From IMG/VR virus record IMGVR_UViG_3300035128_000105, positions 1 to 61,517 of that record: a stretch of 61,517 nucleotides of DNA; one strand, given 5' to 3'. This document shows, in pieces, positions 28,843 to 54,164 of this stretch. The DNA comes from a virus. The translations under genes and the position numbers were made by a program. Positions within the stretch are counted from its first letter, which is position 1. Every line of letters begins with the position of its first letter. The notes beneath the pieces were generated by a model, which worked only from the letters and a program-made list of their open reading frames with translations, had not been told where the DNA came from and did not search any database.

Positions 28843-31485
28843 ATGAATCCCGTCGTCACGCCTTTCGCTCGACGACCCGACTGGTTCGTCGTGCCCGCCG
28901 AATGGCTGCCGGAGCTGGCTGGCGTACCAGGCGTGACGTTATTGGGCAGTGCAGGTGGTGTCCACCGCTCTCATCTACCCCTGCTGGCGCAAGCGCACCC
29001 TGAAGTGCACCCGTTTTTGAACGTGCCGTTGGAGAACCAGGCGGCGCGTAGTCGCCTAGATGCATCGACAGAACCACTGGGGTTCAAACTGCGTCCATAC
29101 CAACACGAAGGTCGCGAGTTTATCCATGCGCGACGAGGGACGTTGCTGGCCGATCAGATGAGACTGGGGAAAGGGCAGCCATTAGATGCATGCGTTTTGA
29201 CGCCCACAGGGTGGAAAACGATGGGCGATCTAATTGTAGGCAGCCGAGTCGTTGATCCCGACGGTGGCGAAGGCGTGGTGGAAGATATTTTTCCTCGGGG
29301 ACGCCAACGGGTCTACCGCGTCACGACGTGCGATGGTCGGAGTACCGAGTGCGACGAAGATCATTTGTGGTTGTTGCATACTGCGCATTCTCGGTGGCGC
29401 GGCGGAGATCCGCGTCCACGTGCGCTCAAAACGTTCAAAGACAACCTCTGGATCAAGACGCCAAGCCGATCGTGGGGGCGCGGCAACCGCCGTTTCTTTT
29501 TACCTTTGTGCCGACCGCCTGAAGGCGAAGATACCGATCTCTTCGTCGAACCGTACTTGTTGGGTTGCTTGCTGGGAAACGGCATGCTGCGCAGCGGCAC
29601 GCCCGAGATTTCAACGTCTGAGCGGGAGATTTTAGATCGCATTCGTCCGTCCCTCTCAGCTTACGGCGTCGTACCCAAAGCTGCTGGTGGTGTTGATTGG
29701 CGATTGTCCAGTCCAGCAGGGCAAGAAAACAAGCTAACGACAGCACTGCGTGCGCTGAAGTTGTGGGGCTGTGGTGCACAAGACAAATTCATTCCAGTCC
29801 AATATCTTTCCGCGTCGGTTCCTGTGCGGCGAGCACTCTTGCACGGGTTGATGGACACAGACGGAGACGTCACCGAGGAGCGGATCACGTCGTACAATAC
29901 AGTGTCTACACGTCTGAAAGATGACGTACGTGCGTTGATTGAAAGCCTGGGAGGTTTTGCCTCGGTTTACTACAAGGCGGCGCCACAGTATTCGTATCGT
30001 GGCGAGAAACGTGAAGGGCGCCCGTCTTATCGACTTCACATCCGGCTGCCCGCCAACCCGTTTCTGTTGGCTCGAAAAACGCAACGCTGGTCGAAGGGCC
30101 GCCTGGCGCGAGGCCTTGAAAGCGTTGAGTACGTTGGTGAGAAAGAAACGCGCTGCATCCAAGTATCAACGAAGCGCGGGCTTTACGTCACTGATGGCTT
30201 TATTGTCACGCACAACACGGCCACAAGCGTGATGTCCCACGATCCGGGCCTCGGGCCTCTCGTCATTGTTGCACCGCTGGCTACACGTGCTGTCTGGGTC
30301 GGTTGGATGAAACGGCGTTGGCCTGACGTCGAACCTGTCGTCTTGCGGGGACGAAAATATGACCCGACGAAGATCAGCGATGCGCCGTGTATCTTCATCC
30401 ACTACGACATCCTCCAAGCTCACCAGAATATGGGTCTACGCCGTCCAGGAACACTCGTATTCGACGAAGCGCACATTCTACAAAACCGTCGATCGAAACG
30501 CAGTCAGGCTGCAATTCTACTTGCGTCCCGCGCTGAGCGTGTCATCGCTGCGACCGGCACGCCGCTATGGAATCGGCCCATCGGGCTTTGGACAATTCTG
30601 TCAGTAGTCAACCCTGGAGCCTGGAATTCGTACTACGATTTTGCTCAGCGATACTGCGCCCCGAAGCTTACGGCCTACGGTACACGCTACGATGGTAGCT
30701 CGAACGAAGCTGAATTCAAACTACGAATAGCTGAGGTCATGATTCGTCGTGAATGGCGCGACGTACTAGAGGATCTACCTCCGTCGGAGCGAACCGTCGA
30801 GGTGGCCGACCTCACAGAAAGTCAGCTGTTCAAGCTCGAAGTTGCAGCCGAGAAAATTCGCGATCCGAGTAAACGCCGCGTCGCCGCAGGCGACATGGTG
30901 CGGTTTCGACGCCTCATCGGGCAGTACAAGGCAAAGTTGGCAGTGGACGTGGCGTCCCGTGTGCTTGCCGGTGAAGAGCCTGTCGTCGTCTGGGCCTGGC
31001 ATAGAGACGTTGCTGACAAAATCGCGACGAATATCGCTAAGCGGGACTACATCGCGTACTGCATTACAGGCGCCGACGATCAGGACGCACGTGACAGGAC
31101 TATCGACGAGTGGAAACGGCATCCTGTCGCCGCACTTGTACTGACAATTCCCGTCGGTCAAGTAGGTATCGATCTGTCACACGCGCGGCAGGCTATTTTT
31201 GCAGAGGTTGACTGGACACCTTCGACGGTAGCCCAAGCCGAGATGCGTACGTTCTCTCCGTACCGCCCCATGGCCATTACCTACCTCGTCGTTGATCACG
31301 ACGTCGATCGAGGTCTTATCGAGACCCTTCAACATAAATGCGAATTGGCCACGACGATTGGAGTCCCAGCGTCCGATACTGCTATCGATGTAATCGCCAG
31401 TGCCTTCGGGTTAAACCCCGACGATGCGGATATGGATCGATTAATGAAAGCCTTCCTCGCGGGTTATGACGGCGAGAGCAATTAA
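28843..31485 (+). CDS. SNF2-family DNA helicase interrupted by an intein
   Basis: LRPYQHEG, motif II VFDEAH, helicase C-domain; intein 29191..30216 inserted at P-loop region. Confidence 0.85.
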   Translation: MNPVVTPFARRPDWFVVPAEWLPELAGVPGVTLLGSAGGVHRSHLPLLAQAHPEVHPFLNVPLENQAARSRLDASTEPLGFKLRPYQHEGREFIHARRGTLLADQMRLGKGQPLDACVLTPTGWKTMGDLIVGSRVVDPDGGEGVVEDIFPRGRQRVYRVTTCDGRSTECDEDHLWLLHTAHSRWRGGDPRPRALKTFKDNLWIKTPSRSWGRGNRRFFLPLCRPPEGEDTDLFVEPYLLGCLLGNGMLRSGTPEISTSEREILDRIRPSLSAYGVVPKAAGGVDWRLSSPAGQENKLTTALRALKLWGCGAQDKFIPVQYLSASVPVRRALLHGLMDTDGDVTEERITSYNTVSTRLKDDVRALIESLGGFASVYYKAAPQYSYRGEKREGRPSYRLHIRLPANPFLLARKTQRWSKGRLARGLESVEYVGEKETRCIQVSTKRGLYVTDGFIVTHNTATSVMSHDPGLGPLVIVAPLATRAVWVGWMKRRWPDVEPVVLRGRKYDPTKISDAPCIFIHYDILQAHQNMGLRRPGTLVFDEAHILQNRRSKRSQAAILLASRAERVIAATGTPLWNRPIGLWTILSVVNPGAWNSYYDFAQRYCAPKLTAYGTRYDGSSNEAEFKLRIAEVMIRREWRDVLEDLPPSERTVEVADLTESQLFKLEVAAEKIRDPSKRRVAAGDMVRFRRLIGQYKAKLAVDVASRVLAGEEPVVVWAWHRDVADKIATNIAKRDYIAYCITGADDQDARDRTIDEWKRHPVAALVLTIPVGQVGIDLSHARQAIFAEVDWTPSTVAQAEMRTFSPYRPMAITYLVVDHDVDRGLIETLQHKCELATTIGVPASDTAIDVIASAFGLNPDDADMDRLMKAFLAGYDGESN
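29191..30216 (+). mobile_element. LAGLIDADG intein (342 aa) in SNF2 helicase
   Basis: starts CVLTPTGW, ends VTHN followed by T; LAGLIDADG blocks YLLGCLLGNG and LLHGLMDTDGD. Confidence 0.8.
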
Positions 31486-31601
31486 TGGTCAGCTCGGGCG
31501 CCCATTTATTTGCCAACTGTCACAGCAAGGTGGTAAGGAAGACAAACGCAGTAGCCGATTAACCACCAACCGGGCAACCGCTCGATTCGATCGGGGGATC
31601 G

Positions 31602-34355
31602 ATGACAGCACGCAGCAGTGACGCGACAACTGGCGTCACCACGACACCACCAGGCCTCGTGCGCCTGCCGACAACCGAAGTCGCTCCAGCGATCACCGAG
31701 ATCGCGCCGCCGATCGACCAGCCAGGCGACCAGCCAGGCGACCAGCCAGGCGACCAGCCAGGCGACCAGCCAGGCGACCAGCCAGACGACCAACCTTCTG
31801 CGGGTGTAGAACCTGTGCAATGCGTGGTTTGTGGCGCCGAAATGGATGCGACGACCGCTGAGGATATTTATCAGCATCCTGCTGATAAACCTTGTGTCGT
31901 TGTTTTGACGGACGGGAAGGGCGAGTCTATCGACCGCCAATTCTTCGTCGCTCAAGACGGCAACATCTATGTGATCGAGGCTGAAGCGGAGAGCACGCTG
32001 CCTCCAGTTCCACCGGAGGACGTCGTTACCGTCACACAAGAACCGACGGCCGACGCGGGTACTGCACCGGGTGAGGACGACGACATCGTTGAACTCGGCG
32101 AGCCTGTACTGCCTGACGTTTTTGGAGGCGAAAGCCCGAAGAAACGCAAACGCAAAACCAAAAAGAGCGACAACGTCGTGTTGCCGTCGAACGCCGCTGA
32201 GACCGCCGATGGCGACATCCTCATCCCGCTCAACCCGGATCCAGCAATTCCCACAATGGAAAAAGGGTTGCTGGCCGCGTTCGACAAGTATGGCTTGGAG
32301 CGCCTGGGTGGCGCCTCTGGGGATCTGGGTTGGTCGAGCTTCTCGTGTTACCAGCGCTGTCCTTACCTCTTCAAGCGGATGTACATCGACGGAGAAAAAG
32401 AAGAGGGACGTCCGGGACGTGCTATCGAGATCGGTTCGTGCTTTCACACGTTCGCTGCAATCCATTACCAAAAGATCATCACTCCCGATTATCCGCTCAC
32501 ACCCGACGAACTACACAAGTTTCTGATCGACTTCGGCGTGTCCATGGAGGCGTTGAGCGAAGCGTGGCGTGTGTGGGAAGGGTACCGCTTCGAGTACGAA
32601 GCCGACTACTTGGTCCCTTTGGCGGTCGAGTACCACATCGTCGATCCGAAAACCCGTGAGTCAGCTCGTTACGACTTGATCGCCAAAGTTGAGAAAGCTC
32701 ACCCCGGTGTTCCCGCAGGTACGTACGTAATCGAGCATAAGTGTTTGGTGGGTACCGAAATCATCGACGATCCAACGGGTCGTCGCGCGACCGTCGCCGA
32801 GCTGTACAACCGACAGCAGCCCTTCACGTGTCTGGCGTTTGACTCGAACGAAAGCGCCCTCGTGCAAGTCTCTGCCGATGTTCCACGTCCGACGACAGTC
32901 CGCGACGTCTATACGGTCACGACGGCTACCGGACGTCAATTGGCGACATCGGACAACCACCCATTCTACACGGCACGCGGCTGGGTACCCGCCGCCGATT
33001 TACGAACCGACGATTGGGTTGCGGTGCCAGCCACGACGGCTAGTAAGGAGCGTCGTCGAGAACTGTACACCGACGCCGAACTCATGTTCATCGGACATAT
33101 GATCGGCGATGGTTCCGCGAATCAGAACATCAAGTACACAAAGCAAGATCCGAAGCTTCGTGCGGCCTTTGTGGCGATCTTGCACAAACTTGATTTGTGC
33201 GCAGCAACCGCCGTCCGCGCCGGCACCTACCGTGTGGATCCCGGTGATGAAGATCATGCGCCGTCCATTGTACTTTCCAGTGCTAAGAAAGGCCGTGCCT
33301 GGCAACTCCTCAATCGTGTTGGGTTGCTGGGCAAACGCTCTCCAGAGAAGACACTAGACCGATCCTTGTTTGAATTGCCCGATCGGCAAACGCGGATCCT
33401 TCTTGCCGCGTTGTGGGATACCGACGGCTGCATCGACCTGTTTGAGGAACGGCGTCACGACAAGTCATCCCAGACCAAGGTCCGTATCGCGTACGCTTCA
33501 AGGTCCGAAGCGCTTTGTCGCGGCGTACAAACACTACTTCTTCGTCTTGGAATTAACAGCTCTTTGACGCAGTCGAGCGTCGAGTACGAAAGTGAGCGGC
33601 GTCCGTACTGGACAACAAAGGTAATCGGACGTGAAGCCAAACGCGCGTTCGTACGTGAGATCCAAACACGGGCCGTGCCTTGTGAAAAGTTTTCCGAGGA
33701 CTGGTTACGACAGGTACAAGAAGCAATCAAACCGGGGGACGATCGCCCCATACCAACTGCACTTATTGCCGGGTTAGCGATGACTAGCACGCAGCGCAGC
33801 AAACTGATCGGGGCGTCTACGAGGCCCAAGCATAGTGTGTACGCTTCGACGCTCGAAGCAGTACTGGAGGACGCAGCAAAGCCGATTCTGGCACCCCCAA
33901 TCCACTGGGATCGCGTGCAGTCGGTGCTCGTGACGGGCCGCGAAATGATGTATGACATCACAGTTCCGTTCGTTCACACATTCGTCGCCAACGACATCAT
34001 CACCCACAACACCGCAGGACGGTTCGATGATGCGACTCTCGACGGTTGGCGGAACGACGGTGAGATTCTAGGCCAAATCATGCTGTGGAAACGCCTCAAG
34101 CTGAAGAAGAAGTTCGGCAAGCTTCAGGGCGTGATGGTGAATGTTGTAGGCAAACAGAAAATCCAAAAGTTTCATCGGACGATCGTGCCGCCGCAACGCT
34201 GGCAAACGAATCAACACAGCAAAGACCTCAAGGTTTGGCAAGGCCTCCGGGTGTTAGCCATGGCCAGCAACACGTTTCCGCGTGCGCGGGCTAACTGCAT
34301 CGGTCGCTACGGCAAGTGCTCCCAGTGGCCCCACTGTGCGGACAGGGAAAAGTAG
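31602..34355 (+). CDS. Cas4/RecB-family PD-(D/E)xK exonuclease with N-terminal (PGDQ)n repeat, interrupted by an intein
   Basis: YQRCPYLFKRMY, D...IEHK motif split by intein, C-terminal Cys cluster CIGRYGKCSQWPHC. Confidence 0.75.
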   Translation: MTARSSDATTGVTTTPPGLVRLPTTEVAPAITEIAPPIDQPGDQPGDQPGDQPGDQPGDQPDDQPSAGVEPVQCVVCGAEMDATTAEDIYQHPADKPCVVVLTDGKGESIDRQFFVAQDGNIYVIEAEAESTLPPVPPEDVVTVTQEPTADAGTAPGEDDDIVELGEPVLPDVFGGESPKKRKRKTKKSDNVVLPSNAAETADGDILIPLNPDPAIPTMEKGLLAAFDKYGLERLGGASGDLGWSSFSCYQRCPYLFKRMYIDGEKEEGRPGRAIEIGSCFHTFAAIHYQKIITPDYPLTPDELHKFLIDFGVSMEALSEAWRVWEGYRFEYEADYLVPLAVEYHIVDPKTRESARYDLIAKVEKAHPGVPAGTYVIEHKCLVGTEIIDDPTGRRATVAELYNRQQPFTCLAFDSNESALVQVSADVPRPTTVRDVYTVTTATGRQLATSDNHPFYTARGWVPAADLRTDDWVAVPATTASKERRRELYTDAELMFIGHMIGDGSANQNIKYTKQDPKLRAAFVAILHKLDLCAATAVRAGTYRVDPGDEDHAPSIVLSSAKKGRAWQLLNRVGLLGKRSPEKTLDRSLFELPDRQTRILLAALWDTDGCIDLFEERRHDKSSQTKVRIAYASRSEALCRGVQTLLLRLGINSSLTQSSVEYESERRPYWTTKVIGREAKRAFVREIQTRAVPCEKFSEDWLRQVQEAIKPGDDRPIPTALIAGLAMTSTQRSKLIGASTRPKHSVYASTLEAVLEDAAKPILAPPIHWDRVQSVLVTGREMMYDITVPFVHTFVANDIITHNTAGRFDDATLDGWRNDGEILGQIMLWKRLKLKKKFGKLQGVMVNVVGKQKIQKFHRTIVPPQRWQTNQHSKDLKVWQGLRVLAMASNTFPRARANCIGRYGKCSQWPHCADREK
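31719..31790 (+). repeat. 12-bp tandem repeat (CAGCCAGGCGAC)x6 encoding (QPGD)n
   Basis: read directly from sequence. Confidence 0.9.
32742..34010 (+). mobile_element. LAGLIDADG intein (423 aa) in Cas4-like nuclease
   Basis: starts CLVGTEIIDDPTG, ends ITHN followed by T; LAGLIDADG blocks FIGHMIGDGS and LLAALWDTDGC. Confidence 0.75.
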
Positions 34356-34588
34356 TGCAACGCGCGTATCGGACAACGGACCTGACGGCGTTCAGTGTGC
34401 TCGATGACGAAGAGCGACAATCACTACTCTGGATCAAGGCGTTCCTCGCAGATCCGGAGTCCAAGGGTGGTTTCGCAACGCTGCAAGATTGCGGCTTCGA
34501 CATCATTCAAGATCTTTTAGATTATCTGAGTCGCTACCAGGCAGCGTACAACCAGCTGCGTGCCGATCTATTTTTGGAGGCGAGTTGA
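34356..34588 (+). CDS. hypothetical protein (GTG start)
   Basis: 77-aa reading frame after nuclease stop. Confidence 0.25.
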
Positions 34589-34590
34589 TC

Positions 34591-34869
34591 GTGGGTGCGA
34601 CTAAAAAGATCTCCCCAGCGATCGAACCGATCCCGGTAGCGATCGACGACGTAGATGCGATCGAAATTTGTCGCAACGAGAGCTGTCCGATCGTCGAGAT
34701 CCACGAGGCGCACGTGTTGCCGTCTGGGCGTGGCGCGCCGCCAAAACACTGTCCCGTATGCGTGGCAGTCATACCACGTGGACAGGGTGCACGATGTGAA
34801 GCGTGCGGCTGGAAACGTTCGGGGCGTCCCTTCGCGCGACGCAAGCAAGGAGAGAAAGACGATGCGTGA
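34591..34869 (+). CDS. small zinc-finger protein; paralog of N-terminal domain of 36448..37017
   Basis: GGAGG SD 10 nt before GTG; shared motif AIE(I/V)..(C/I)..(E/D)..C..IEIH. Confidence 0.45.
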   Translation: MGATKKISPAIEPIPVAIDDVDAIEICRNESCPIVEIHEAHVLPSGRGAPPKHCPVCVAVIPRGQGARCEACGWKRSGRPFARRKQGEKDDA

Positions 34870-35725
34870 GATCGATTTGTCCAGTCACCAGCCACCAAAA
34901 CGGACGACCGTATTGTCGTACGGCCAGATGCGGTCAGGTAAAACGCGCTGGGCGGCGACGTGGCCGCGTCCACTGTTTTTGTCGGATGCGACTGAAGGCG
35001 GCTGGACCACGATCAAAAACATGGATCGCAACGTACTTTGGGAGCCCGATGTCGTGCCACGCGTCTGGGCGATCGACACCGCTGCTGACATGATGCAAGC
35101 CCTCGGCGACGTCGAGCCTCTCATCAAGCAAAACCAAGTCCAGACGCTGGTCATCGATTCGCTCACGTTTTACAACGACCTCTATCTGGCAATGCTGTGT
35201 CGTGTCGCAGCACAGGGCGGCCGTCAGCCCGACATGCGCCGCGTCTACGGCAACCTTGGCCAGCATCTTCGTGAGTTGCGGATCCGCGTCCACAACCTCG
35301 ACACAAACGTCGTGTGGTTGTGTCTGGCCAAACAACCTGACGACAGCAACCCGATGGGCGGTCCGATGATTTCGGGGCAACAAGCACAGAAGTTCAGTGC
35401 CGGCTGTGACTACATTTTGTATCACCGCGCGTACCAGCCGACGCCGAACGATCCGCACTACTTCGAGATCCGCACACGCCGCTACAGCCAGTACGCCGCT
35501 GGCGGTCGCGACGAATTCAAACTTCCTGACCCCCTCGCGTACGTGTCTCAGGATGCTGAGACCGGCGAGGACATCTGGGTAGGCGATTGCACGTACCGCA
35601 CGTTTGCCGAAGCGCTCGGGCTGCTAACGCCGCCCACAACTCAACAACAACCCGCAGGTCAGCCCGTCGGGGTTGGCCGCGCCCCCAACCAAGCTTCCGG
35701 GAAGGCAGCACTGTCGTCCCGATAA
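34862..35725 (+). CDS. Sak4-like RecA-fold ATPase (AAA_24 family)
   Basis: Walker A VLSYGQMRSGKT; Walker B LVIDSLT; phage recombination context. Confidence 0.7.
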   Translation: MREIDLSSHQPPKRTTVLSYGQMRSGKTRWAATWPRPLFLSDATEGGWTTIKNMDRNVLWEPDVVPRVWAIDTAADMMQALGDVEPLIKQNQVQTLVIDSLTFYNDLYLAMLCRVAAQGGRQPDMRRVYGNLGQHLRELRIRVHNLDTNVVWLCLAKQPDDSNPMGGPMISGQQAQKFSAGCDYILYHRAYQPTPNDPHYFEIRTRRYSQYAAGGRDEFKLPDPLAYVSQDAETGEDIWVGDCTYRTFAEALGLLTPPTTQQQPAGQPVGVGRAPNQASGKAALSSR

Positions 35726-35786
35726 GTTAGAGCGAACAAGCGCGCTCGATAACCACTAGTAGCACAACAACAGGAGACAAAGGCAA

Positions 35787-36341
35787 ATGGCAGATCAAAA
35801 CAATCAGTTTGTGGACTTCATCGACATGCGCCTCAACGATCCGGAGTTGGAGGCTTGGGACGGTCGCGCTCGTCGCGTCGATCCCGGCTTCTACGACTTC
35901 GAGGTCGAGGAGGCCAAAATCGGTCAGTCCCGCGCAGGAAACCCTACACTGGAGTTGACCTTCCGAGTCATCACCCCGGGCGAGATGGAAAACCGCACCA
36001 TGCGGCAAAGCTACGTCATCATGCCCGACAACGACGGCGCTCGTGCCCGCATGAAGAACCTGATCAGCGCACTCGGTGCCAGCACCGACGGCGAAGGTCG
36101 GTTCGCGGCGAGCAACCTGGTCGGTTTGCGTATGAGCGGCGAAGTCGCCTTGCGGACCTACGAGACGCTCGATACCCGCACCGGCAATCAGGTGCAGCGC
36201 GAGAGCAGCTCGATCATCGGCGAGGCGCCGTGGGAAGGACAGCAACAGCAGCAGGCTCAGCCCGGCGTGGGTCGTGCACCGGTCGGTCAGGCCGTCGCTC
36301 GCCGTACGGGTGGCAACGCCGCTCCACAGGCGCGCGGCTAA
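35787..36341 (+). CDS. possible DUF669-like ssDNA-binding/annealing partner of Sak4
   Basis: AGGAGA SD; position adjacent to Sak4; Gln/Gly-rich C-terminal tail; weak family inference. Confidence 0.4.
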   Translation: MADQNNQFVDFIDMRLNDPELEAWDGRARRVDPGFYDFEVEEAKIGQSRAGNPTLELTFRVITPGEMENRTMRQSYVIMPDNDGARARMKNLISALGASTDGEGRFAASNLVGLRMSGEVALRTYETLDTRTGNQVQRESSSIIGEAPWEGQQQQQAQPGVGRAPVGQAVARRTGGNAAPQARG

Positions 36342-36447
36342 CACCGCTCGTTGTAGGTAGTGAGGGGCGCGCCGCTGTGCCAGAAGGACACTAAGCGGCG
36401 CGCTCCCGAACTTTTTACCAGCTGTACGGACCATGGGGGACTCCTGA

Positions 36448-37017
36448 ATGGCTACTCCGAAGGAACGACGGACATCTGACCGCTTTGCAGCTCACACGTT
36501 GGGGGTAACGACCGCCACGCTGCGAGCTTCTCGTCGAAAACAGACCGCTCCATTCTCATACGTTGACGACGGCGCTATTGAAGTCATCGACGCAACGAAC
36601 ATTTGTCGTGATGATCGTTGTGACCGGATCGAGATCCATGCGACGCACCCAGTAGACAGGCGGGCGACCGATCCGTTCTGCGACCCTACGTACCACACAC
36701 GTAAGGTGCAGCGGCACGGGCCGACGTTGAATGCGATCGTAGCCAAACACATCGAGCGTCGGCGCTGCAAAGTGTTCCGCGAGATCTACAACGACGTCAT
36801 CCACGACTACGGCACCTTCAAATCCAAGGCCGCCGGCACTCGTGCAATCTGGCGCGCTATCGAGCAACTGCTTGCAGCAGATCAAATCACGTCGATCAAA
36901 GTTGCCGGAACGAAATCTCCTGGCGGTTACGTCCGAAGTGACAGTCCACTGCTACGTGACAGCGACGGTCGCAGGTCGTTGCTCGAATCACTCGAAGACC
37001 AGTTCCCAACCTGGTAG
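36448..37017 (+). CDS. hypothetical protein with N-terminal zinc-finger-like domain paralogous to 34591..34869
   Basis: AIEVIDATNICRDDRCDRIEIHATH motif. Confidence 0.45.
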   Translation: MATPKERRTSDRFAAHTLGVTTATLRASRRKQTAPFSYVDDGAIEVIDATNICRDDRCDRIEIHATHPVDRRATDPFCDPTYHTRKVQRHGPTLNAIVAKHIERRRCKVFREIYNDVIHDYGTFKSKAAGTRAIWRAIEQLLAADQITSIKVAGTKSPGGYVRSDSPLLRDSDGRRSLLESLEDQFPTW

Positions 37018-37025
37018 GAGCAACG

Positions 37026-37328
37026 ATGCCAAGCAAGAGGCTAAGCGAGAAGCCAGTTGTCGTGGGGACAGTGTACGAACCGAGTGCGATGCAGGTGTTC
37101 CGGGTACTCGCGTGGCCTGTTACTCGCCACGACCATAGCAGCGACGGTAAACCTCTTCCTGACGTTTTGGGCGTCGAACGATTCGACGGACGGGATGCGC
37201 TTGGAAGTCCTCGTTGGCAGCCAGTTCACGACGACGCACAGCGGGCTCTGGTGATCGCATCCGCTCTCTTTTGGAAAACCGCTAAAGGCGTTGAGCTGAT
37301 CGACGCCGCTACGTCTCCACGAGAGTAG
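37026..37328 (+). CDS. hypothetical protein
   Basis: TAGGAG SD before ATG. Confidence 0.4.
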   Translation: MPSKRLSEKPVVVGTVYEPSAMQVFRVLAWPVTRHDHSSDGKPLPDVLGVERFDGRDALGSPRWQPVHDDAQRALVIASALFWKTAKGVELIDAATSPRE

Positions 37329-37331
37329 AAA

Positions 37332-40300
37332 ATGCCCAGTCCACCTAGATTTGGTGGCCCAGGCGGCTTGCCAGAGCCTGTATTGGGGCGCGGGAATCAG
37401 CTGCCGTTGTTTCGAGGAAAAACGGATGGTGCTGACTGCGCGCACTGTCCGTTTTCGCGTGATGGACGGCCGAATCGACCCGTAGTGGGAGAGGGCCCGG
37501 AGAATCCAAAATGGCTCGCAATCGGTGAAGGCCCTGGTCGCAATGAAGTCGCGATGGGAAGACCCTTCATCGGGGCCTCGGGTCAGATGGTCAACAAGGC
37601 GCTTCAAGCCATCCGACGACCGCGCGATCAAATATGGGTGGATAACTCCACATTGTGTCAACCTACTCCCTACGCGACCGACGAAGACAAAAAACTGGCC
37701 CGTAAATGTTGTGAGCCACGGTTCCGCGCACAAATCATGCAGTGGCCCGATCGGCCCATTCTCGCGTTAGGAGCTATCGCCGCCAGGGCGTTTTTGGGCA
37801 CGAGGTTCTCGATCAACGAGATGGCCGGTTCGTACCACTGGATCGAAAAGAAAAAGTGGGGCGCGCGAGCAGTCATTCCAACGATTCACCCCGCTGCCAT
37901 CTTGCGAGGCGGTGGTGGTATTGGTGGCGCGCATGCACCAGATCTTGCGTTTTGGAACCTGATCTACGATATGGCGAAAATCGATGCCATTGCCAACGGC
38001 AAGGACATCGTCTTTCGCGAAGATGACATTGCTACGGAGTACGAAGATCCAAAACGCGCTGAGCAGCTCGTGCGCCAGATGGTCTTGGACGCTCGTGCGT
38101 GTGGCATGATCGCGACAGATACTGAGACGTACGTCGAAGACGAGAGGAAACACTCGGCGCTTCAACCTCTGAACGCCAAGATGAGTGCGCTGGGTCTAGC
38201 AACGGAAGGATGGGGCCTGTCGGTTGCGTGGAACATCATGACGCCGTACGCCAAACGACTGGTCGCGAACGTTTTTGCTGATTACAACGTTCGCAAGGTC
38301 ATGCATAACCGGCTGTACGACCGTCCGGTACTCGCGCGACACGGCTTACCGGTGTATGGCCCAAACGACGACACAATGTTGCGTCATCATTCGGCGTTTC
38401 CAGGGCTATCTCATAGCCTGCAACGTGTAGCGACACAGTATTTCGCCATCACTCCCTGGAAAGCCGAGTTCCGCAAAGGTCACGACACGCCCGAAAACCT
38501 CACACGATACAACGCCAAAGACACACTGGTCACTGCACGAATCGACGCGCCGCTTACGATCGCACTCAAAAAAACGCAGTCCGAGCGTACGTACGAGATC
38601 GACCTCAAATCCACGGAAGTCGCCCAATGGATGCACGAAAAAGGTGTGCCTGTTTCACGTGAGGTCAATCAGCAACTGTACAACACGTTCCTGGAAAACA
38701 TGACTCAGGCCCGACAGGTCATGGAAGATGCTGCCTACGATCCAGCTATCCAAAAGAAGTTGTGGGATCGACTAGCGTTTGAGCAGGCCAAACGCATTCG
38801 CAAAGCCGATCCGATTGACGACTTCGAGGCGCGGCACAAGACTCGTCTCGAAGAAATCCAACACGCACACAACAAAGGACGTTGGCAGTGGAAGATTGGA
38901 TCGGGCGAGCACGTCGCTGCTTACCTCAAAGCGCGCGGCGTTCCGCTGTATTTCATGACGCCGACCGGACGTACGTCCACCAAAAAAGAAATCCTCGAAC
39001 AGTTTTCTCACCTGCCCGAAGTTCAATCCTTGCTGGATTACCGCGAGAACCAAAAGATGTTCTCGACCTTCGTCTACAGGTTTTTCGATCGATACGATGT
39101 GAACGGGAACATCGTTAAGTACGGATACGCGGACGAGGACAGCCGCATTCATCCGCGTTGGTCAGTCCACAAAATCACGGGTCGCTGGGGAGCCGAAGAC
39201 CCGATGTGCTTCGACGGCGACACGGAGATCCTTACTGAGAACGGTTGGGTCCGGTTCGATGCGCTTCCACGCAATGTTCGGGTGGCGCAGTATCATCTGG
39301 AGGATCGCATTGTAGATTTTGTTCATCCAACAGACTACATCGAGCGCCATCACGCCAGTTCGATGGTACGTCTACAAGGGAAAAATATCGATCTCGTTGT
39401 CACGCCTGATCACCGCTTCCCTGTACGACCTCGCCCCCGAAGGCGGTGCTCGAACCCACGATGGCGGGACATACGCGCTGATGCGTGGAAAAAAGAATAT
39501 CAACTCCCTGTTGCGGGCCGATACGTAGGGGGCTCGTGGGCTCCGTCTCCGGCCTACGTGTCCTTTGTATGTGCGGCGCAAGCAGACGGATCGTGGAACG
39601 GTTACGGCTGGTATTTTGGCCTCAGTAAGACGCGAAAGATAGAACGCCTACGCAACGTACTTGACACGTTGGGCCTGTCGTACCGTTTGACCGACAAAAC
39701 CGAACCGGACCCGTTTCGTGAAGGCACTTTTCGGACACGAAAAATAATCTACGTGCACAAATCCGAGGTGGGCGATGAAGTCGCACAACGGTTGGGGTTA
39801 ACAACGGGACAAACCGGGAAAGGCTTGTTCGGCGCGTGGGTCCTTGACCTCACAGCAACAATGTTGAACCAGTTTGCACTGGAGATCGAGTTTTGGGACG
39901 GCTGTCCAACACGTGAAGGGCAATTTGCGTCCTCACAGAAACAAAGTGCTGATTGGGCCCAAATCGCGTTTGTTTTGACAGACCGTCGCGCAAAAATTCG
40001 TCCATACAACAGCGGTGCCCTACAAACAAAGACGAATTGGCAAGTAGACGTAGCACGTCGCACGCGGACTAAAGGCGCTACGTGGTACATCGGAACTGAC
40101 CAGGCAGTAGCCACGGAAATTCCTGGATCAAAAATTGTTTACTGCGTCTCCGTCCCTTCGTCGTATATCCTCGTACGCCGCAACGGGAAAGTGGTTGTCG
40201 CCGGAAACTGTCAGAACTGGCCGAAGGCGAACAAAAAGAAGGGACGGCCCAATCTGCGGTCCCAGGTCGTTGCGCCGGACGGTCGTATCTTTGTTGGGTT

Positions 40301-42206
40301 CGACTTTGCTCAGTTAGAGGCCCGCATCATCGCGCTCTATAGCGGTGATCCGTTCTTGTGCGACATCTTTTGGAACCACAAAGACATTCACTCAGAGTTC
40401 GCGCGGGTCGTGTGGCCTAACTACGACTCATTGCCGATCGATCAGCGCAAGGTGTTGCGCGACACCATCAAACGCCCTGAGTACGGTGCGTTCTACGGCG
40501 GCCAGATCGACACCCTGTGGAAGAACGTCGTCAAGGATTACCCCGACGTCAAGCTCCAGGACATCGCCAAGATGGTCACACTGATGACGGCGAAGATGCC
40601 TGGCGTTACGTTGTGGCACAACAAGCTACTGCGTGACGTCGCAGTGGCGCCCCATGAGATCCGTAGTGCGGTGTACGGCCGTCGTCGTTGCTTCCCACTT
40701 GGCAACGCTGACATAAATGATGTCTACAATTTCCCGGTGCAGTGCCTACGAGGTGATCAACGCGTGCTGACGACAAACGGTTGGAAGCCAATCGAACAGT
40801 TGGTTCCTGGAGTCGATACGCTTATGCAGCCAAGCGGCCGTACAACGACGGCGTTCAAGCTGCGCAGTACGGGAACGCGTGACATCTACGAAGTACAAAC
40901 AAAAGGGCGGCGAATCTACTGCACGAAAGAACACCGATTCCTCACGTACGTACGGGGCGGCAAGGTCGCCTGGATGAAGACGCGATACCTTGAACAAGGA
41001 CGACATCTCGCAGTCGATTTTACGCCCGCACAGGGCGGTTACGATCCTCCCAACGTCAACCCTGCTATCGCGGAGGCACTAGGAGCCCTTGTCGGTGACG
41101 GCAACTACACAAGGCGTGGATTCGTCATTACGTGCACAACCAAAAGGTACGCTAACCACATCAAGCGGCTTGTCGAGACTTCGTGGCCTGACATGGTGTG
41201 CCGAGTCCGCTCCATAAAAAAACAAGCTGCAAAACACAAACAGCTCTGGTCGGTGTCATCAGAAGGACAGTTAGCAAGTGCGCGTCTCAAAGTTCTTGGG
41301 CTCCAACCCGCGACGGCAAAAGCCAAGAGTCTACCTACGTGGGTTGAGACTGCTACCTTGCCGACGCGTGTAGCGCTCTTGAAAGGTCTTTTTGACTCCG
41401 ATGGGGGACACACCGGCGTAGACGTGTCGTTCACGACGACATCATGGGAGCTTGCTAGAACTACGCAGCGGCTTTTGTTGTCCGTAGGCATCGACGCGCG
41501 CCACTACACGCTCAAACGTAGTCACCGTATTATCATTCGACCTACGAGCCGTCCTTTGTTCGATCAACTCATTGGGTTCACGTACAGCGAAAAACGGCAA
41601 CGCCTTCAATCTAGGCAGCACAAAAATCCCATCGACCGCTTGCCTTCTGATCTCGTCCAACACGTTGCACGGTTGCTCAAAAAACGGTTGCCAAAACGAG
41701 ACAAAGGTTGGACGAAGCTGGAGCACGCACGCCTTACTCGGGCGCTACAGGGATCGGCGAGCCAACAACAAATGGAGAAGATTTTTTCAGCGTGCCATCG
41801 CTGCGCCGAAATCGACGACATCGAACAGATATACACCGACGGCCTGAAGTTCTTTTGGGAAGAGATCGTCAGCGTAAGACGCGTTGGACGCGCCCAGACC
41901 TTTGAGCTGGAGATCGAAGACGATCATGGGTACGTGGCGGAGGGATTCGTTACGCATAATTCGACCGCTTCTGATGTCATGGCAACAGGCATGTTGCGGA
42001 TCGTCCCACGCCTTCAGCAAAAGTACATTAACGCATTTCCTATCCTCCAAATCCACGATGCAATGGTGTTCGAGTGCGACGAAGATGATGGTGAGCGCCT
42101 CAAGGAAGACGTCCGTGAGTGCTTCGAGCAGGAGCACACGTTCGGTGGCGTTACGATTCCCTTTCCCGTAGACCCCGCTGTGGGCAAAAGCTGGGCCCAG
42201 GTCTAG
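37332..42206 (+). CDS. Family-4 uracil-DNA glycosylase domain fused to family A DNA polymerase (3'-5' exo + Pol), interrupted by two inteins
   Basis: UDG motifs GEGPGRNE, GRPFIGASGQMVNKAL, IHPAAILR; exo MIATDTETYVED; PolA motif A GFDFAQLEARIIA, motif C QIHDAMVFE. Confidence 0.85.
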   Translation: MPSPPRFGGPGGLPEPVLGRGNQLPLFRGKTDGADCAHCPFSRDGRPNRPVVGEGPENPKWLAIGEGPGRNEVAMGRPFIGASGQMVNKALQAIRRPRDQIWVDNSTLCQPTPYATDEDKKLARKCCEPRFRAQIMQWPDRPILALGAIAARAFLGTRFSINEMAGSYHWIEKKKWGARAVIPTIHPAAILRGGGGIGGAHAPDLAFWNLIYDMAKIDAIANGKDIVFREDDIATEYEDPKRAEQLVRQMVLDARACGMIATDTETYVEDERKHSALQPLNAKMSALGLATEGWGLSVAWNIMTPYAKRLVANVFADYNVRKVMHNRLYDRPVLARHGLPVYGPNDDTMLRHHSAFPGLSHSLQRVATQYFAITPWKAEFRKGHDTPENLTRYNAKDTLVTARIDAPLTIALKKTQSERTYEIDLKSTEVAQWMHEKGVPVSREVNQQLYNTFLENMTQARQVMEDAAYDPAIQKKLWDRLAFEQAKRIRKADPIDDFEARHKTRLEEIQHAHNKGRWQWKIGSGEHVAAYLKARGVPLYFMTPTGRTSTKKEILEQFSHLPEVQSLLDYRENQKMFSTFVYRFFDRYDVNGNIVKYGYADEDSRIHPRWSVHKITGRWGAEDPMCFDGDTEILTENGWVRFDALPRNVRVAQYHLEDRIVDFVHPTDYIERHHASSMVRLQGKNIDLVVTPDHRFPVRPRPRRRCSNPRWRDIRADAWKKEYQLPVAGRYVGGSWAPSPAYVSFVCAAQADGSWNGYGWYFGLSKTRKIERLRNVLDTLGLSYRLTDKTEPDPFREGTFRTRKIIYVHKSEVGDEVAQRLGLTTGQTGKGLFGAWVLDLTATMLNQFALEIEFWDGCPTREGQFASSQKQSADWAQIAFVLTDRRAKIRPYNSGALQTKTNWQVDVARRTRTKGATWYIGTDQAVATEIPGSKIVYCVSVPSSYILVRRNGKVVVAGNCQNWPKANKKKGRPNLRSQVVAPDGRIFVGFDFAQLEARIIALYSGDPFLCDIFWNHKDIHSEFARVVWPNYDSLPIDQRKVLRDTIKRPEYGAFYGGQIDTLWKNVVKDYPDVKLQDIAKMVTLMTAKMPGVTLWHNKLLRDVAVAPHEIRSAVYGRRRCFPLGNADINDVYNFPVQCLRGDQRVLTTNGWKPIEQLVPGVDTLMQPSGRTTTAFKLRSTGTRDIYEVQTKGRRIYCTKEHRFLTYVRGGKVAWMKTRYLEQGRHLAVDFTPAQGGYDPPNVNPAIAEALGALVGDGNYTRRGFVITCTTKRYANHIKRLVETSWPDMVCRVRSIKKQAAKHKQLWSVSSEGQLASARLKVLGLQPATAKAKSLPTWVETATLPTRVALLKGLFDSDGGHTGVDVSFTTTSWELARTTQRLLLSVGIDARHYTLKRSHRIIIRPTSRPLFDQLIGFTYSEKRQRLQSRQHKNPIDRLPSDLVQHVARLLKKRLPKRDKGWTKLEHARLTRALQGSASQQQMEKIFSACHRCAEIDDIEQIYTDGLKFFWEEIVSVRRVGRAQTFELEIEDDHGYVAEGFVTHNSTASDVMATGMLRIVPRLQQKYINAFPILQIHDAMVFECDEDDGERLKEDVRECFEQEHTFGGVTIPFPVDPAVGKSWAQV
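39207..40208 (+). mobile_element. intein 1 (334 aa) in DNA polymerase
   Basis: CFDGDTEILTENGW start, VVAGN end followed by C; exteins rejoin as TGRWGAEDPM/CQNWP (PolA O-helix region). Confidence 0.8.
40743..41960 (+). mobile_element. intein 2 (406 aa, LAGLIDADG) in DNA polymerase
   Basis: CLRGDQRVLTTNGW start, FVTHN end followed by S; LAGLIDADG blocks ALGALVGDGN and LLKGLFDSDGG. Confidence 0.8.
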
Positions 42207-54064: not shown

Positions 54065-54089
54065 AGTCTCTCCTACCATATTAATTGAG

Positions 54090-54164
54090 TGCGCGGAGCC
54101 GGACTTGCACCGGCACCCCCGAGATCCACAGTCTACGGTGCTCCACTATTTGAGCTACCCGCGC
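54090..54164 (-). tRNA. tRNA-like sequence (75 nt) with degenerate anticodon arm; possible pseudo-tRNA
   Basis: 7-bp acceptor stem (GCGCGGG/TCCGCGC), D-arm TAGCTCAAATAGTGGAGCA, T-arm GCCGG-TGCAAGT-CCGGC; anticodon stem only 3 bp around a CTGTGGA loop (GTG). Confidence 0.35.

Follow-up and report, generated by a model that had tools for sequence, protein, structure and literature searches.

A stretch of metagenomic DNA from a virus, IMG/VR record IMGVR_UViG_3300035128_000105 (61,517 nt, referred to here as the window), contains a region of about 13.4 kb in which three open reading frames (ORFs) on the + strand carry four long insertions. The question raised by this locus is whether the insertions are inteins, where each of them begins and ends, and how they would leave the proteins they interrupt. 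From the analyses presented below, they are very probably four mobile inteins, each consisting of a HINT splicing domain and a nested LAGLIDADG endonuclease, that have inserted themselves into the replication genes of a phage-like genome and are predicted to excise themselves after translation. Inteins 1 and 2 are found in an SNF2-family helicase and a Cas4-like nuclease, respectively, while inteins 3 and 4 share a UDG-exonuclease-PolA polymerase. All four have precedents in phages and bacteria and represent no new kind of intein.

Empty sites and exact boundaries

The inserts were delimited by comparison with L006, a 14.4 kb ENA sequence that is syntenic with the window and empty at all four intein sites. 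The order of genes in L006 is the same (SNF2, nuclease, AAA_24, two small genes, UDG-exo-PolA, thymidylate kinase) and the exteins of the two sequences are about 70–86% identical. A protein search with the SNF2 precursor identified P0004, a protein of 540 amino acids (aa) encoded on L006 that is 82% identical and free of an insert. As shown in Table 1, the empty sites in L006, P0004, P0122 and P0241 match the insert positions exactly, to the codon, at both the protein and the DNA level. All four intein stretches are in frame within the host ORFs with no stop codon or frameshift, and an identical 880-aa SNF2 precursor was found again in an independent assembly. The E-values of the Pfam and PDB matches, taken together with these exact empty sites and the independent assembly, place the insertions far beyond what chance would produce.

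When the inserts were removed in silico, the host motifs were restored and the Pfam domain scores rose. The SNF2-rel_dom score increased from 66.6 to 76.5 bits with motif I now included, and the PDDEXK_1 score from 20.3 to 24.6 bits (cut-off 22). The DNA_pol_A match, which amounts to 122.9 bits in three pieces in the precursor, became a single piece of 161 bits covering positions 8–380 of 381. The spliced polymerase aligns continuously to Taq across both junctions, including DFAQLEAR, KRPEYGAFYG and QIHDA, and the junctions of the spliced exteins were likewise restored when aligned to L006 and P0004.

The original prediction, made from the letters of the window, had named four LAGLIDADG inteins in these genes (one each in the helicase and the nuclease, two in the family A polymerase), and the empty sites, Pfam and AlphaFold bear this out. 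Its boundaries for inteins 2, 3 and 4 are exact in comparison with L006; however, it began intein 1 at 29191, and the true start at 29173 lies 18 bases (six codons) earlier. Each intein was said to begin with Cys, which holds for inteins 2, 3 and 4, but intein 1 begins with Gly and the Cys that had been noted is position 7 of the intein. Each was also said to end in His-Asn, as inteins 1, 2 and 4 do, but intein 3 ends in Ala-Gly-Asn. The proposed +1 residue of Thr, Ser or Cys agrees with the junctions of inteins 1 to 4, which are HN/T, HN/T, GN/C and HN/S (a slash marks the junction), and the block B His is present in all four. A search against Pfam intein and LAGLIDADG models, in line with the intein HMM search that had been suggested as a check, matched inteins 1, 2 and 4 and left intein 3 unmatched. 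The LAGLIDADG endonuclease claimed for every intein was found by Pfam (LAGLIDADG_3) in those three, and by AlphaFold and Foldseek in intein 3. The SNF2 P-loop, the EHK motif of the nuclease and the polymerase region before motif C, listed as insertion sites, are indeed conserved functional motifs. Restoration of these motifs upon excision had been expected and is observed in the Pfam scores and, with the start at 29173, in the sequence LGK/T; the start at 29191 instead leaves LGKGQPLDA/TATS.

The four inteins sum to 4,533 nt, which corresponds to 7.4% of the contig, 34% of the 13.4-kb region and 44% of the three genes. The intein load in these replication genes is high, as had been supposed. 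A phmmer search with the four inteins against all six-frame ORFs of the window detected no further inteins. Rfam matched only a tRNA-His (GTG) there and gave no sign of group I or II introns. The GC content of the inteins, overall and at third codon positions (GC3), is somewhat lower than that of the exteins (0.55–0.62 vs 0.58–0.75), a difference too small to serve as evidence. In crAss-like Zeta phages, an "unprecedented density" of up to three inteins plus introns per genome has been described (PMC7886860). The window resembles these phages in having several mobile self-splicing elements clustered in core replication genes, but differs in presenting four inteins in 13.4 kb, in lacking a group I intron detectable by Rfam, and in belonging to a different, unclassified lineage.

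Table 1. Positions of the predicted host genes, their inteins and other features of the window. A slash marks a splice junction; empty sites are from L006, or from P0004 for the SNF2 gene.
Feature	Positions	Strand	Size and predicted class	Residues and junctions in the window	Empty site
SNF2-family helicase precursor	28843..31485	+	880 aa; 532 aa spliced	Pfam SNF2-rel_dom, Helicase_C	
Intein 1	29173..30216	+	348 aa, class 3 + LAGLIDADG	Between Walker A Lys110 and Thr: LLADQMRLGK/GQPLDACVLTPTGW…GFIVTHN/TATSVMSHDPG	LLADMMRLGK/TATCVMSHDPG
Intein 1, block B	29353..29370	+		DEDHLW; His64 (B:10), Trp66 (B:12, class 3 signature)	
Intein 1, LAGLIDADG motif 1	29557..29583	+		LLGCLLGNG; Asn in place of catalytic Asp	
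Intein 1, LAGLIDADG motif 2	29836..29865	+		LLHGLMDTDG; Asp present	
Intein 1, block F	30148..30165	+		TRCIQV; Cys328 (F:4), predicted initiating nucleophile	
Intein 1, C-terminus	30208..30216	+		Thr346-His347-Asn348	
Cas4-like / RecB-family PD-(D/E)XK nuclease precursor	31602..34355	+	917 aa; 494 aa spliced	Four invariant Cys	
12-nt tandem repeat, nuclease N-terminal region	31715..31792	+	6.5 copies	Encodes (DQPG)n	
Intein 2	32742..34010	+	423 aa, class 1 + LAGLIDADG	After catalytic Lys of E-H-K: YVIEHK/CLVGTE…DIITHN/TAGRFDD	YVVEHK/TAGRFDD
UDG – 3'-5' exonuclease – family A DNA polymerase precursor	37332..42206	+	1624 aa; 884 aa spliced	Pfam UDG, DNA_pol_A_exo1, DNA_pol_A	
Intein 3 (PolA site a)	39207..40208	+	334 aa	TGRWGAEDPM/…/CQNWPKANK; Cys1, TPDH block B, Cys313 (F:4), Gly333-Asn334, +1 Cys	GAEDPM/AQNWPKADK
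Intein 4 (PolA site b)	40743..41960	+	406 aa, class 1 + LAGLIDADG	NFPVQ/…/STASDVMATG	NFPVQ/STGADIMATG
Vault-like ORF	20936..23581	-	880 aa	Pfam PF11978, PF17795	
tRNA-His (GTG)	54089..54164	-			

Predicted splicing classes of the four inteins

Intein 1 is assigned, from its sequence, to class 3 since it has Gly at position 1 together with a Trp66/Cys328/Thr346 triplet. Class 3 inteins have no N-terminal nucleophile and are recognized by Trp at B:12, Cys at F:4, Thr at G:5 and Thr or Ser at +1; they occur mostly in the P-loops of DnaB, RecG, SNF2 and terminase (PMC2807308, PMC5222942), and those verified experimentally have His65 and Trp67 (PMC5222942). HMMER alignments of intein 1 with gp41-1 (6qaz, 6riz) and with the DnaB-1 inteins of Mycobacterium smegmatis (Msm) and M. 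chimaera (Mch) (6bs8, 6rix, 6riy) place Gly111 at residue 1 and Asn348 at the last. The N-terminus, G-Q-P-L-D-A-C-V-L-T-P-T-G-W-K-T-M-G-D, can be compared with L-D-T-P-L-P-T-P-S-G-W-T-T-M-G-D of Msm DnaB-1 (from residue 4). Cys328 aligns to Cys118 of Msm DnaB-1, and the Trp/Cys/Thr triplet to the WCT of 6bs8 and 6riz.

A comparison was made with 63 homologous inteins from SNF2, DnaB, RecA and other P-loop ATPases. Every one of the 63 is inserted directly after the Walker A GK and has Cys at F:4, while H-L-W occupies positions 64–66 in 62. The first residue is Ala in 45, Gly in 11, Leu, Glu and Ser in two each and Met in one, and never Cys or Thr; the +1 residue is Thr in 61 and Ser in two. Intein 1 is like the class 3 P-loop helicase inteins of Deinococcus radiodurans Snf2, mycobacteriophage Bethlehem DnaB and M. 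smegmatis / M. chimaera DnaB-1 (6bs8, 6rix) in having Trp B:12, Cys F:4, Thr G:5, His-Asn with Thr+1 and no N-terminal nucleophile, in its insertion in the Walker A motif of a helicase, here between Lys and Thr, and in direct sequence similarity (PMC2807308, PMC5222942). It differs in starting with Gly rather than the commoner Ala and in the change of the first LAGLIDADG Asp to Asn. The host is a phage-type SNF2 protein that is only ~30% identical to SNF2 genes of cultured phages.

The endonuclease of intein 1 was matched by Pfam LAGLIDADG_3 and Hom_end, and by PI-SceI. LAGLIDADG enzymes depend on catalytic acidic residues, such as Asp218 and Asp326 of PI-SceI. Since Asn replaces the first of these in intein 1, where the relatives P0002, P0005 and P0006 have LLGDG instead of LLGNG, the endonuclease may be inactive, impaired or a nickase. 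At the same site, the SNF2 protein P0003 (684 aa) bears a 150-aa mini-intein from which the endonuclease domain has been deleted.

Intein 2 has the features of class 1. It was matched by Pfam Intein_splicing (1.9e-15) and LAGLIDADG_3 (1.4e-15), has Cys1, Asp at F:4 (MYDITV) and no Trp at B:12, and retains Asp in both LAGLIDADG motifs. The interrupted sequence EHK[T/S] is present in 85 of 96 intein-free nuclease homologues; at the intein 2 site, class 1 inteins bounded EHK/C…THN/T were found in at least four homologues, and a fifth (P0313) has the EHK/C junction. Residues D152, K174, C47, C270, C277 and C283 (fragment numbering) are invariant in 26 nuclease homologues. AlphaFold modeled the spliced nuclease domain with a predicted local distance difference test (pLDDT) score of 90, and a Foldseek search with this model identified the Cas4-family protein ACE1, RecE, AddB, AdnAB, MGME1 and the Cas4 protein SSO0001. 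A profile of 26 Cas4-like homologues found no match among PDB sequences, so the relationship to known structures is distant. From the model, the invariant residues and the PDDEXK_1 score after splicing, the host of intein 2 is a Cas4-like or RecB-family PD-(D/E)XK nuclease. The 12-nt repeat in its N-terminal region (CGACCAGCCAGG) is perfect. The encoded (DQPG)n array is absent from the L006 orthologue and is thus a length-polymorphic, low-complexity insert.

The same kind of host is used by the Cas4 / RecB-like exonuclease inteins of actinobacteriophages (cluster C1 mycobacteriophages; ScoobyDoobyDoo-type). The site is also the same, E-x-K/T of RecB motif III, which reads EFKT in actinophages and EHKT in the window, and LAGLIDADG is present in both (10.1101/2025.01.02.630785; PMC5050341). 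In contrast, the Cas4 inteins highlighted in the class 3 phylogeny of the actinophage survey are of class 3 and terminase-derived, whereas intein 2 is of class 1. Intein 4, also predicted to be of class 1, was matched by Pfam Intein_splicing (3.3e-11) and LAGLIDADG_3 (2.1e-9) and has Asp in both LAGLIDADG motifs.

Intein 3 gave neither a Pfam match with hmmscan nor a PDB sequence match with phmmer. An AlphaFold model calculated on the family alignment (mean pLDDT 90.5) was matched by Foldseek to the endonuclease-bearing inteins TliVMA (E 6e-14), PhoVMA, PI-SceI and PI-PfuI, with the middle part corresponding to I-DmoI. Two LAGLIDADG-like motifs, FVCAAQADG and ALEIEFWDG, both have their Asp. 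In the model, the fold of intein 3 is that of HINT with LAGLIDADG, and the secondary structure agrees with the LAGLIDADG part. Eleven PolA homologues, including the product of the window, have an insert at exactly this site, either full-length (312–335 aa) or mini (145–155 aa). In an alignment of ten of these, Cys1, Thr66 and His69 (block B), V-Y-C313-V-x-V-P (block F), Arg-Arg and Gly333 are invariant. Of note, two of the site-a inteins end in Gly-Gln instead of Gly-Asn (P0128, …VIVVGQ/CQNVP; P0135, …VIAGQ/CQNVP).

Distant full-length homologues of intein 3, 25–33% identical, were found in cultured phages within the C1 mycobacteriophage nucleotidyltransferase and Staphylococcus Kayvirus NAMPT. 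Others lie in the DNA polymerase of Escherichia phage JEP1 (Vequintavirus), one of several polymerase-annotated matches from E. coli phages, and in the ribonucleotide reductase beta proteins of Pseudanabaena and Vibrio phages. Intein 3 and the nucleotidyltransferase, NAMPT and JEP1 inteins share Cys1, T-x-x-H, an x-C-[VF]-[ST]-V-P block F, R-R-N and Gly-Asn, and the pattern of Cys1, Cys F:4 and Gly-Asn is present in the three homologues inspected closely (BeanWater, phiSNIID, JEP1). Intein 3 is followed by Cys at +1, in contrast to the Thr+1 of its homologues from Mycobacterium and Staphylococcus phages. The JEP1 intein is located at GDAH/C…GN/CNNAK, just before the O-helix, in comparison to DPM/…/CQNWP before motif A for intein 3. 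A penultimate His is usual in class 1 inteins and not obligatory. Since phage class 1 inteins with a penultimate Gly splice efficiently (PMC5050341), and the class 1 intein of the Bethlehem gp51 recombination directionality factor also has a penultimate Gly, intein 3 is assigned from its residues to class 1, its block F Cys being atypical.

With these assignments in mind, each intein would be translated in frame with its host protein and would then excise itself, rejoining the exteins into a working SNF2 helicase, Cas4-like nuclease and UDG-exo-PolA polymerase. In the class 1 route expected for inteins 2, 3 and 4, an N-S acyl shift at Cys1 would give a Cys1 thioester, the N-extein would pass to the +1 residue (Thr, Cys and Ser, respectively), and cyclization of the terminal Asn would be followed by an acyl shift that restores the peptide bond. 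In the class 3 route expected for intein 1, the block F Cys328 would attack the Lys110-Gly111 bond, the N-extein would be transferred to Thr+1, and Asn348 would then cyclize.

Two of these assignments have competing explanations. Intein 1 could belong to class 1, start at Cys117 (29191) and leave GQPLDA in the P-loop region of the helicase; CVLTPTG superficially resembles the start of a block A, and THN/T is an ordinary C-terminus. This has almost no chance of being correct since the insert-free orthologues P0004, P0011 and P0013 read GK/T[AL]T with no GQPLDA, the Cys in question (position 7) is present in only two of the 63 homologous inteins, and the alignment to 6bs8, 6riz and 6qaz requires the six extra N-terminal residues. 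Moreover, GK[T/S] is invariant in phage SNF2 homologues: excision at 29173 restores G-K-T, while the product of the later start, LGKG…, would have no Walker A Thr or Ser, and LGKGQPLDA/T occurs in no homologue. The other case concerns the intein 3 family, where Cys313, together with Cys1 and Cys+1, could provide an alternative or second nucleophile in the manner of class 3, or a switch, responsive to redox state or metal, on which maturation of the polymerase depends. Cys313 is invariant in the 10 PolA-site relatives and in the Mycobacterium phage, Staphylococcus phage and JEP1 homologues; at F:4, class 1 inteins usually have Asp while those of class 3 have Cys (PMC2807308); among mini-inteins, the closest fold match of intein 3 is the class 3 split intein 6zgq; and the catalytic cysteines of a class 3 DnaB intein are reported to sense oxidative stress (PMC6195587). 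However, Cys1 is equally invariant, the class 3 Trp at B:12 is missing (Phe or Leu), G:5 is variable (Ala, Thr, Val), and the penultimate-Gly class 1 phage inteins splice normally (PMC5050341). A dual-cysteine route in the site-a family, with its invariant Cys1, Cys F:4, Gly-Asn/Gln and no penultimate His, whether or not gated by redox state or metal, is therefore judged unlikely and intein 3 is kept in class 1.

It is also very unlikely that any of the inserts is decaying into a remnant incapable of splicing, which would leave the host gene without function, as in a defective element. The Asn in the intein 1 endonuclease and the metagenomic origin of the contig would fit such a remnant, but each of the four inteins retains every residue of the splicing blocks, nothing interrupts the ORFs, and the exteins are strongly conserved with relatives. 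Moreover, loss of the endonuclease is a normal stage of the homing cycle with no effect on splicing. Several points nevertheless weigh against four mobile, self-excising inteins in a phage-like genome. Splicing and DNA cleavage are predictions from sequences and models; in intein 1, Asn replaces the catalytic Asp of the first LAGLIDADG motif; and the absence of a penultimate His in intein 3, together with its unusual invariant F:4 Cys, makes its splicing route the least certain. The phage nature is read from the replication module, with no virion gene recognized by PHROGs and Pfam scans in 30 further ORFs of the window.

The polymerase as an intein target and the surrounding contig

Judging from motifs A, B and C, which occur in order, the host of inteins 3 and 4 is a family A DNA polymerase. 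Site a corresponds to TGRLSSSDPN/LQNIP in Taq, approximately 25 residues upstream of motif A (FDFAQLEARI in the window), and site b to NMPVQ/GTAADL, upstream of motif C (QIHDA). The original prediction had placed site a in the O-helix. This is not supported by the Taq alignment, in which the insert falls upstream of motif A and the O-helix (motif B, RDTIKRPEYGAFYG) is uninterrupted. In family A polymerases such as Klenow and Taq, the minor groove is sensed by the Arg of TGR and the Gln of PVQ (R668 and Q849 of Klenow); both sites are DNA-contact motifs. The polymerase gene call P0121 (1573 aa) starts 51 codons 3' of the first ATG of the ORF (1624 aa; region 37332..37484). The L006 polymerase P0122 (8543..11395) contains an internal tandem duplication of ~115 aa that the window polymerase does not have; query residues 460–574 align twice, to subject residues 400–515 and 523–641.

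Among 120 homologues of the UDG-exo-PolA family (P0121–P0240), intein-like inserts with C…[HAS]N/[CST] junctions occur at about ten positions. Two of these are in the UDG domain, three are in or near the exonuclease domain and one is near position 580. In addition to sites a and b, the remaining inserts are inside motif A (GFDF/C…HN/[SC]QLEAR) and inside the O-helix (KRPEY/C…HN/C[AST]FYGG). The polymerase P0133 has three inteins, the highest number among these homologues. An insertion at spliced position 659, which appeared to define a separate DIH/T site, was found on inspection to be the one inside motif A. A variable stretch at spliced positions 155–177 is a low-complexity linker in many homologues and was discarded as an intein candidate. 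Pol I inteins have been mentioned in passing for bacteria (PMC4760082). Beyond this mention, a literature search found no description of intein insertion sites in family A polymerases; the comparison covered papers only, and the PolA sites are not claimed as new.

The contig also encodes a DnaG primase, a D5-like primase/NTPase, a Sak4-like AAA_24 protein and an SSB-like protein, along with a thymidylate kinase, a DinG-like helicase and a Dam methylase. The tRNA-His is the sole RNA family detected in the window. The nearest SNF2 genes of cultured phages, at ~30% identity, are those of Thermus and Rhodothermus phages. A megablast search of the whole region against 50,697 phage records returned zero matches, and the lineage thus has no representative among these cultured phages. 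From the replication module and the distant Thermus and Rhodothermus phage homologues, the contig is probably that of a phage. Relatives of the lineage are found on contigs of 145–243 kb. In a Gemmatimonadota metagenome-assembled genome, a 4.7-Mb contig encodes P0005 (SNF2, JSV86_10450) and P0132 (PolA, JSV86_10410) eight locus tags apart, which suggests an integrated relative and a possible host phylum. The vault-like ORF of Table 1 was matched to the Major Vault Protein shoulder (PF11978, E 5.5e-26) and the vault repeat (PF17795, E 7.5e-11), with no PHROGs match; it is unusual on a phage-like contig.

Predicted homing and possible consequences for phage replication

Among relatives, the same sites may be empty or occupied by a full-length intein or a mini-intein, a pattern that fits a homing cycle. 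Mini-inteins of 145–155 aa are present at the sites of inteins 1, 3 and 4 in P0003 (SNF2) and in P0123, P0133 and P0135 (PolA). At site b, mini-intein alleles are found in P0123 and P0138 and an empty allele in P0122. On the basis of this presence/absence polymorphism and the mini-intein decay products, the LAGLIDADG endonucleases would cut intein-free alleles during co-infection, and repair would copy the intein into them. The +1 codon of the empty site a encodes Ala (GCG), in contrast to Cys in the intein-bearing window; the Cys codon must therefore have entered together with the intein through co-conversion of the adjoining sequence.

An annotation of the three genes should present them as precursors that contain inteins within the limits determined here. 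The SNF2 gene illustrates how a fortuitous Cys can misguide boundary calls for class 3 inteins. Intein 3 and its relatives escape the Pfam intein models, so surveys built on such models undercount them. Together, the contig and its relatives offer a natural series of empty, full-length and mini-intein alleles at four defined sites, which is suited to studies of homing in uncultured phages. The data also point to UDG-fused family A polymerases as a little-described intein hot spot. A broader proposal, in which the UDG-exo-PolA polymerases rank among the most invaded intein targets, site-a inteins splice by a non-standard dual-cysteine route and maturation of the replication module is conditional, is improbable as a whole. 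If splicing of any one of the inteins were conditional on temperature, redox state or metal, which is hypothetical here, it would act as a post-translational gate on phage replication.

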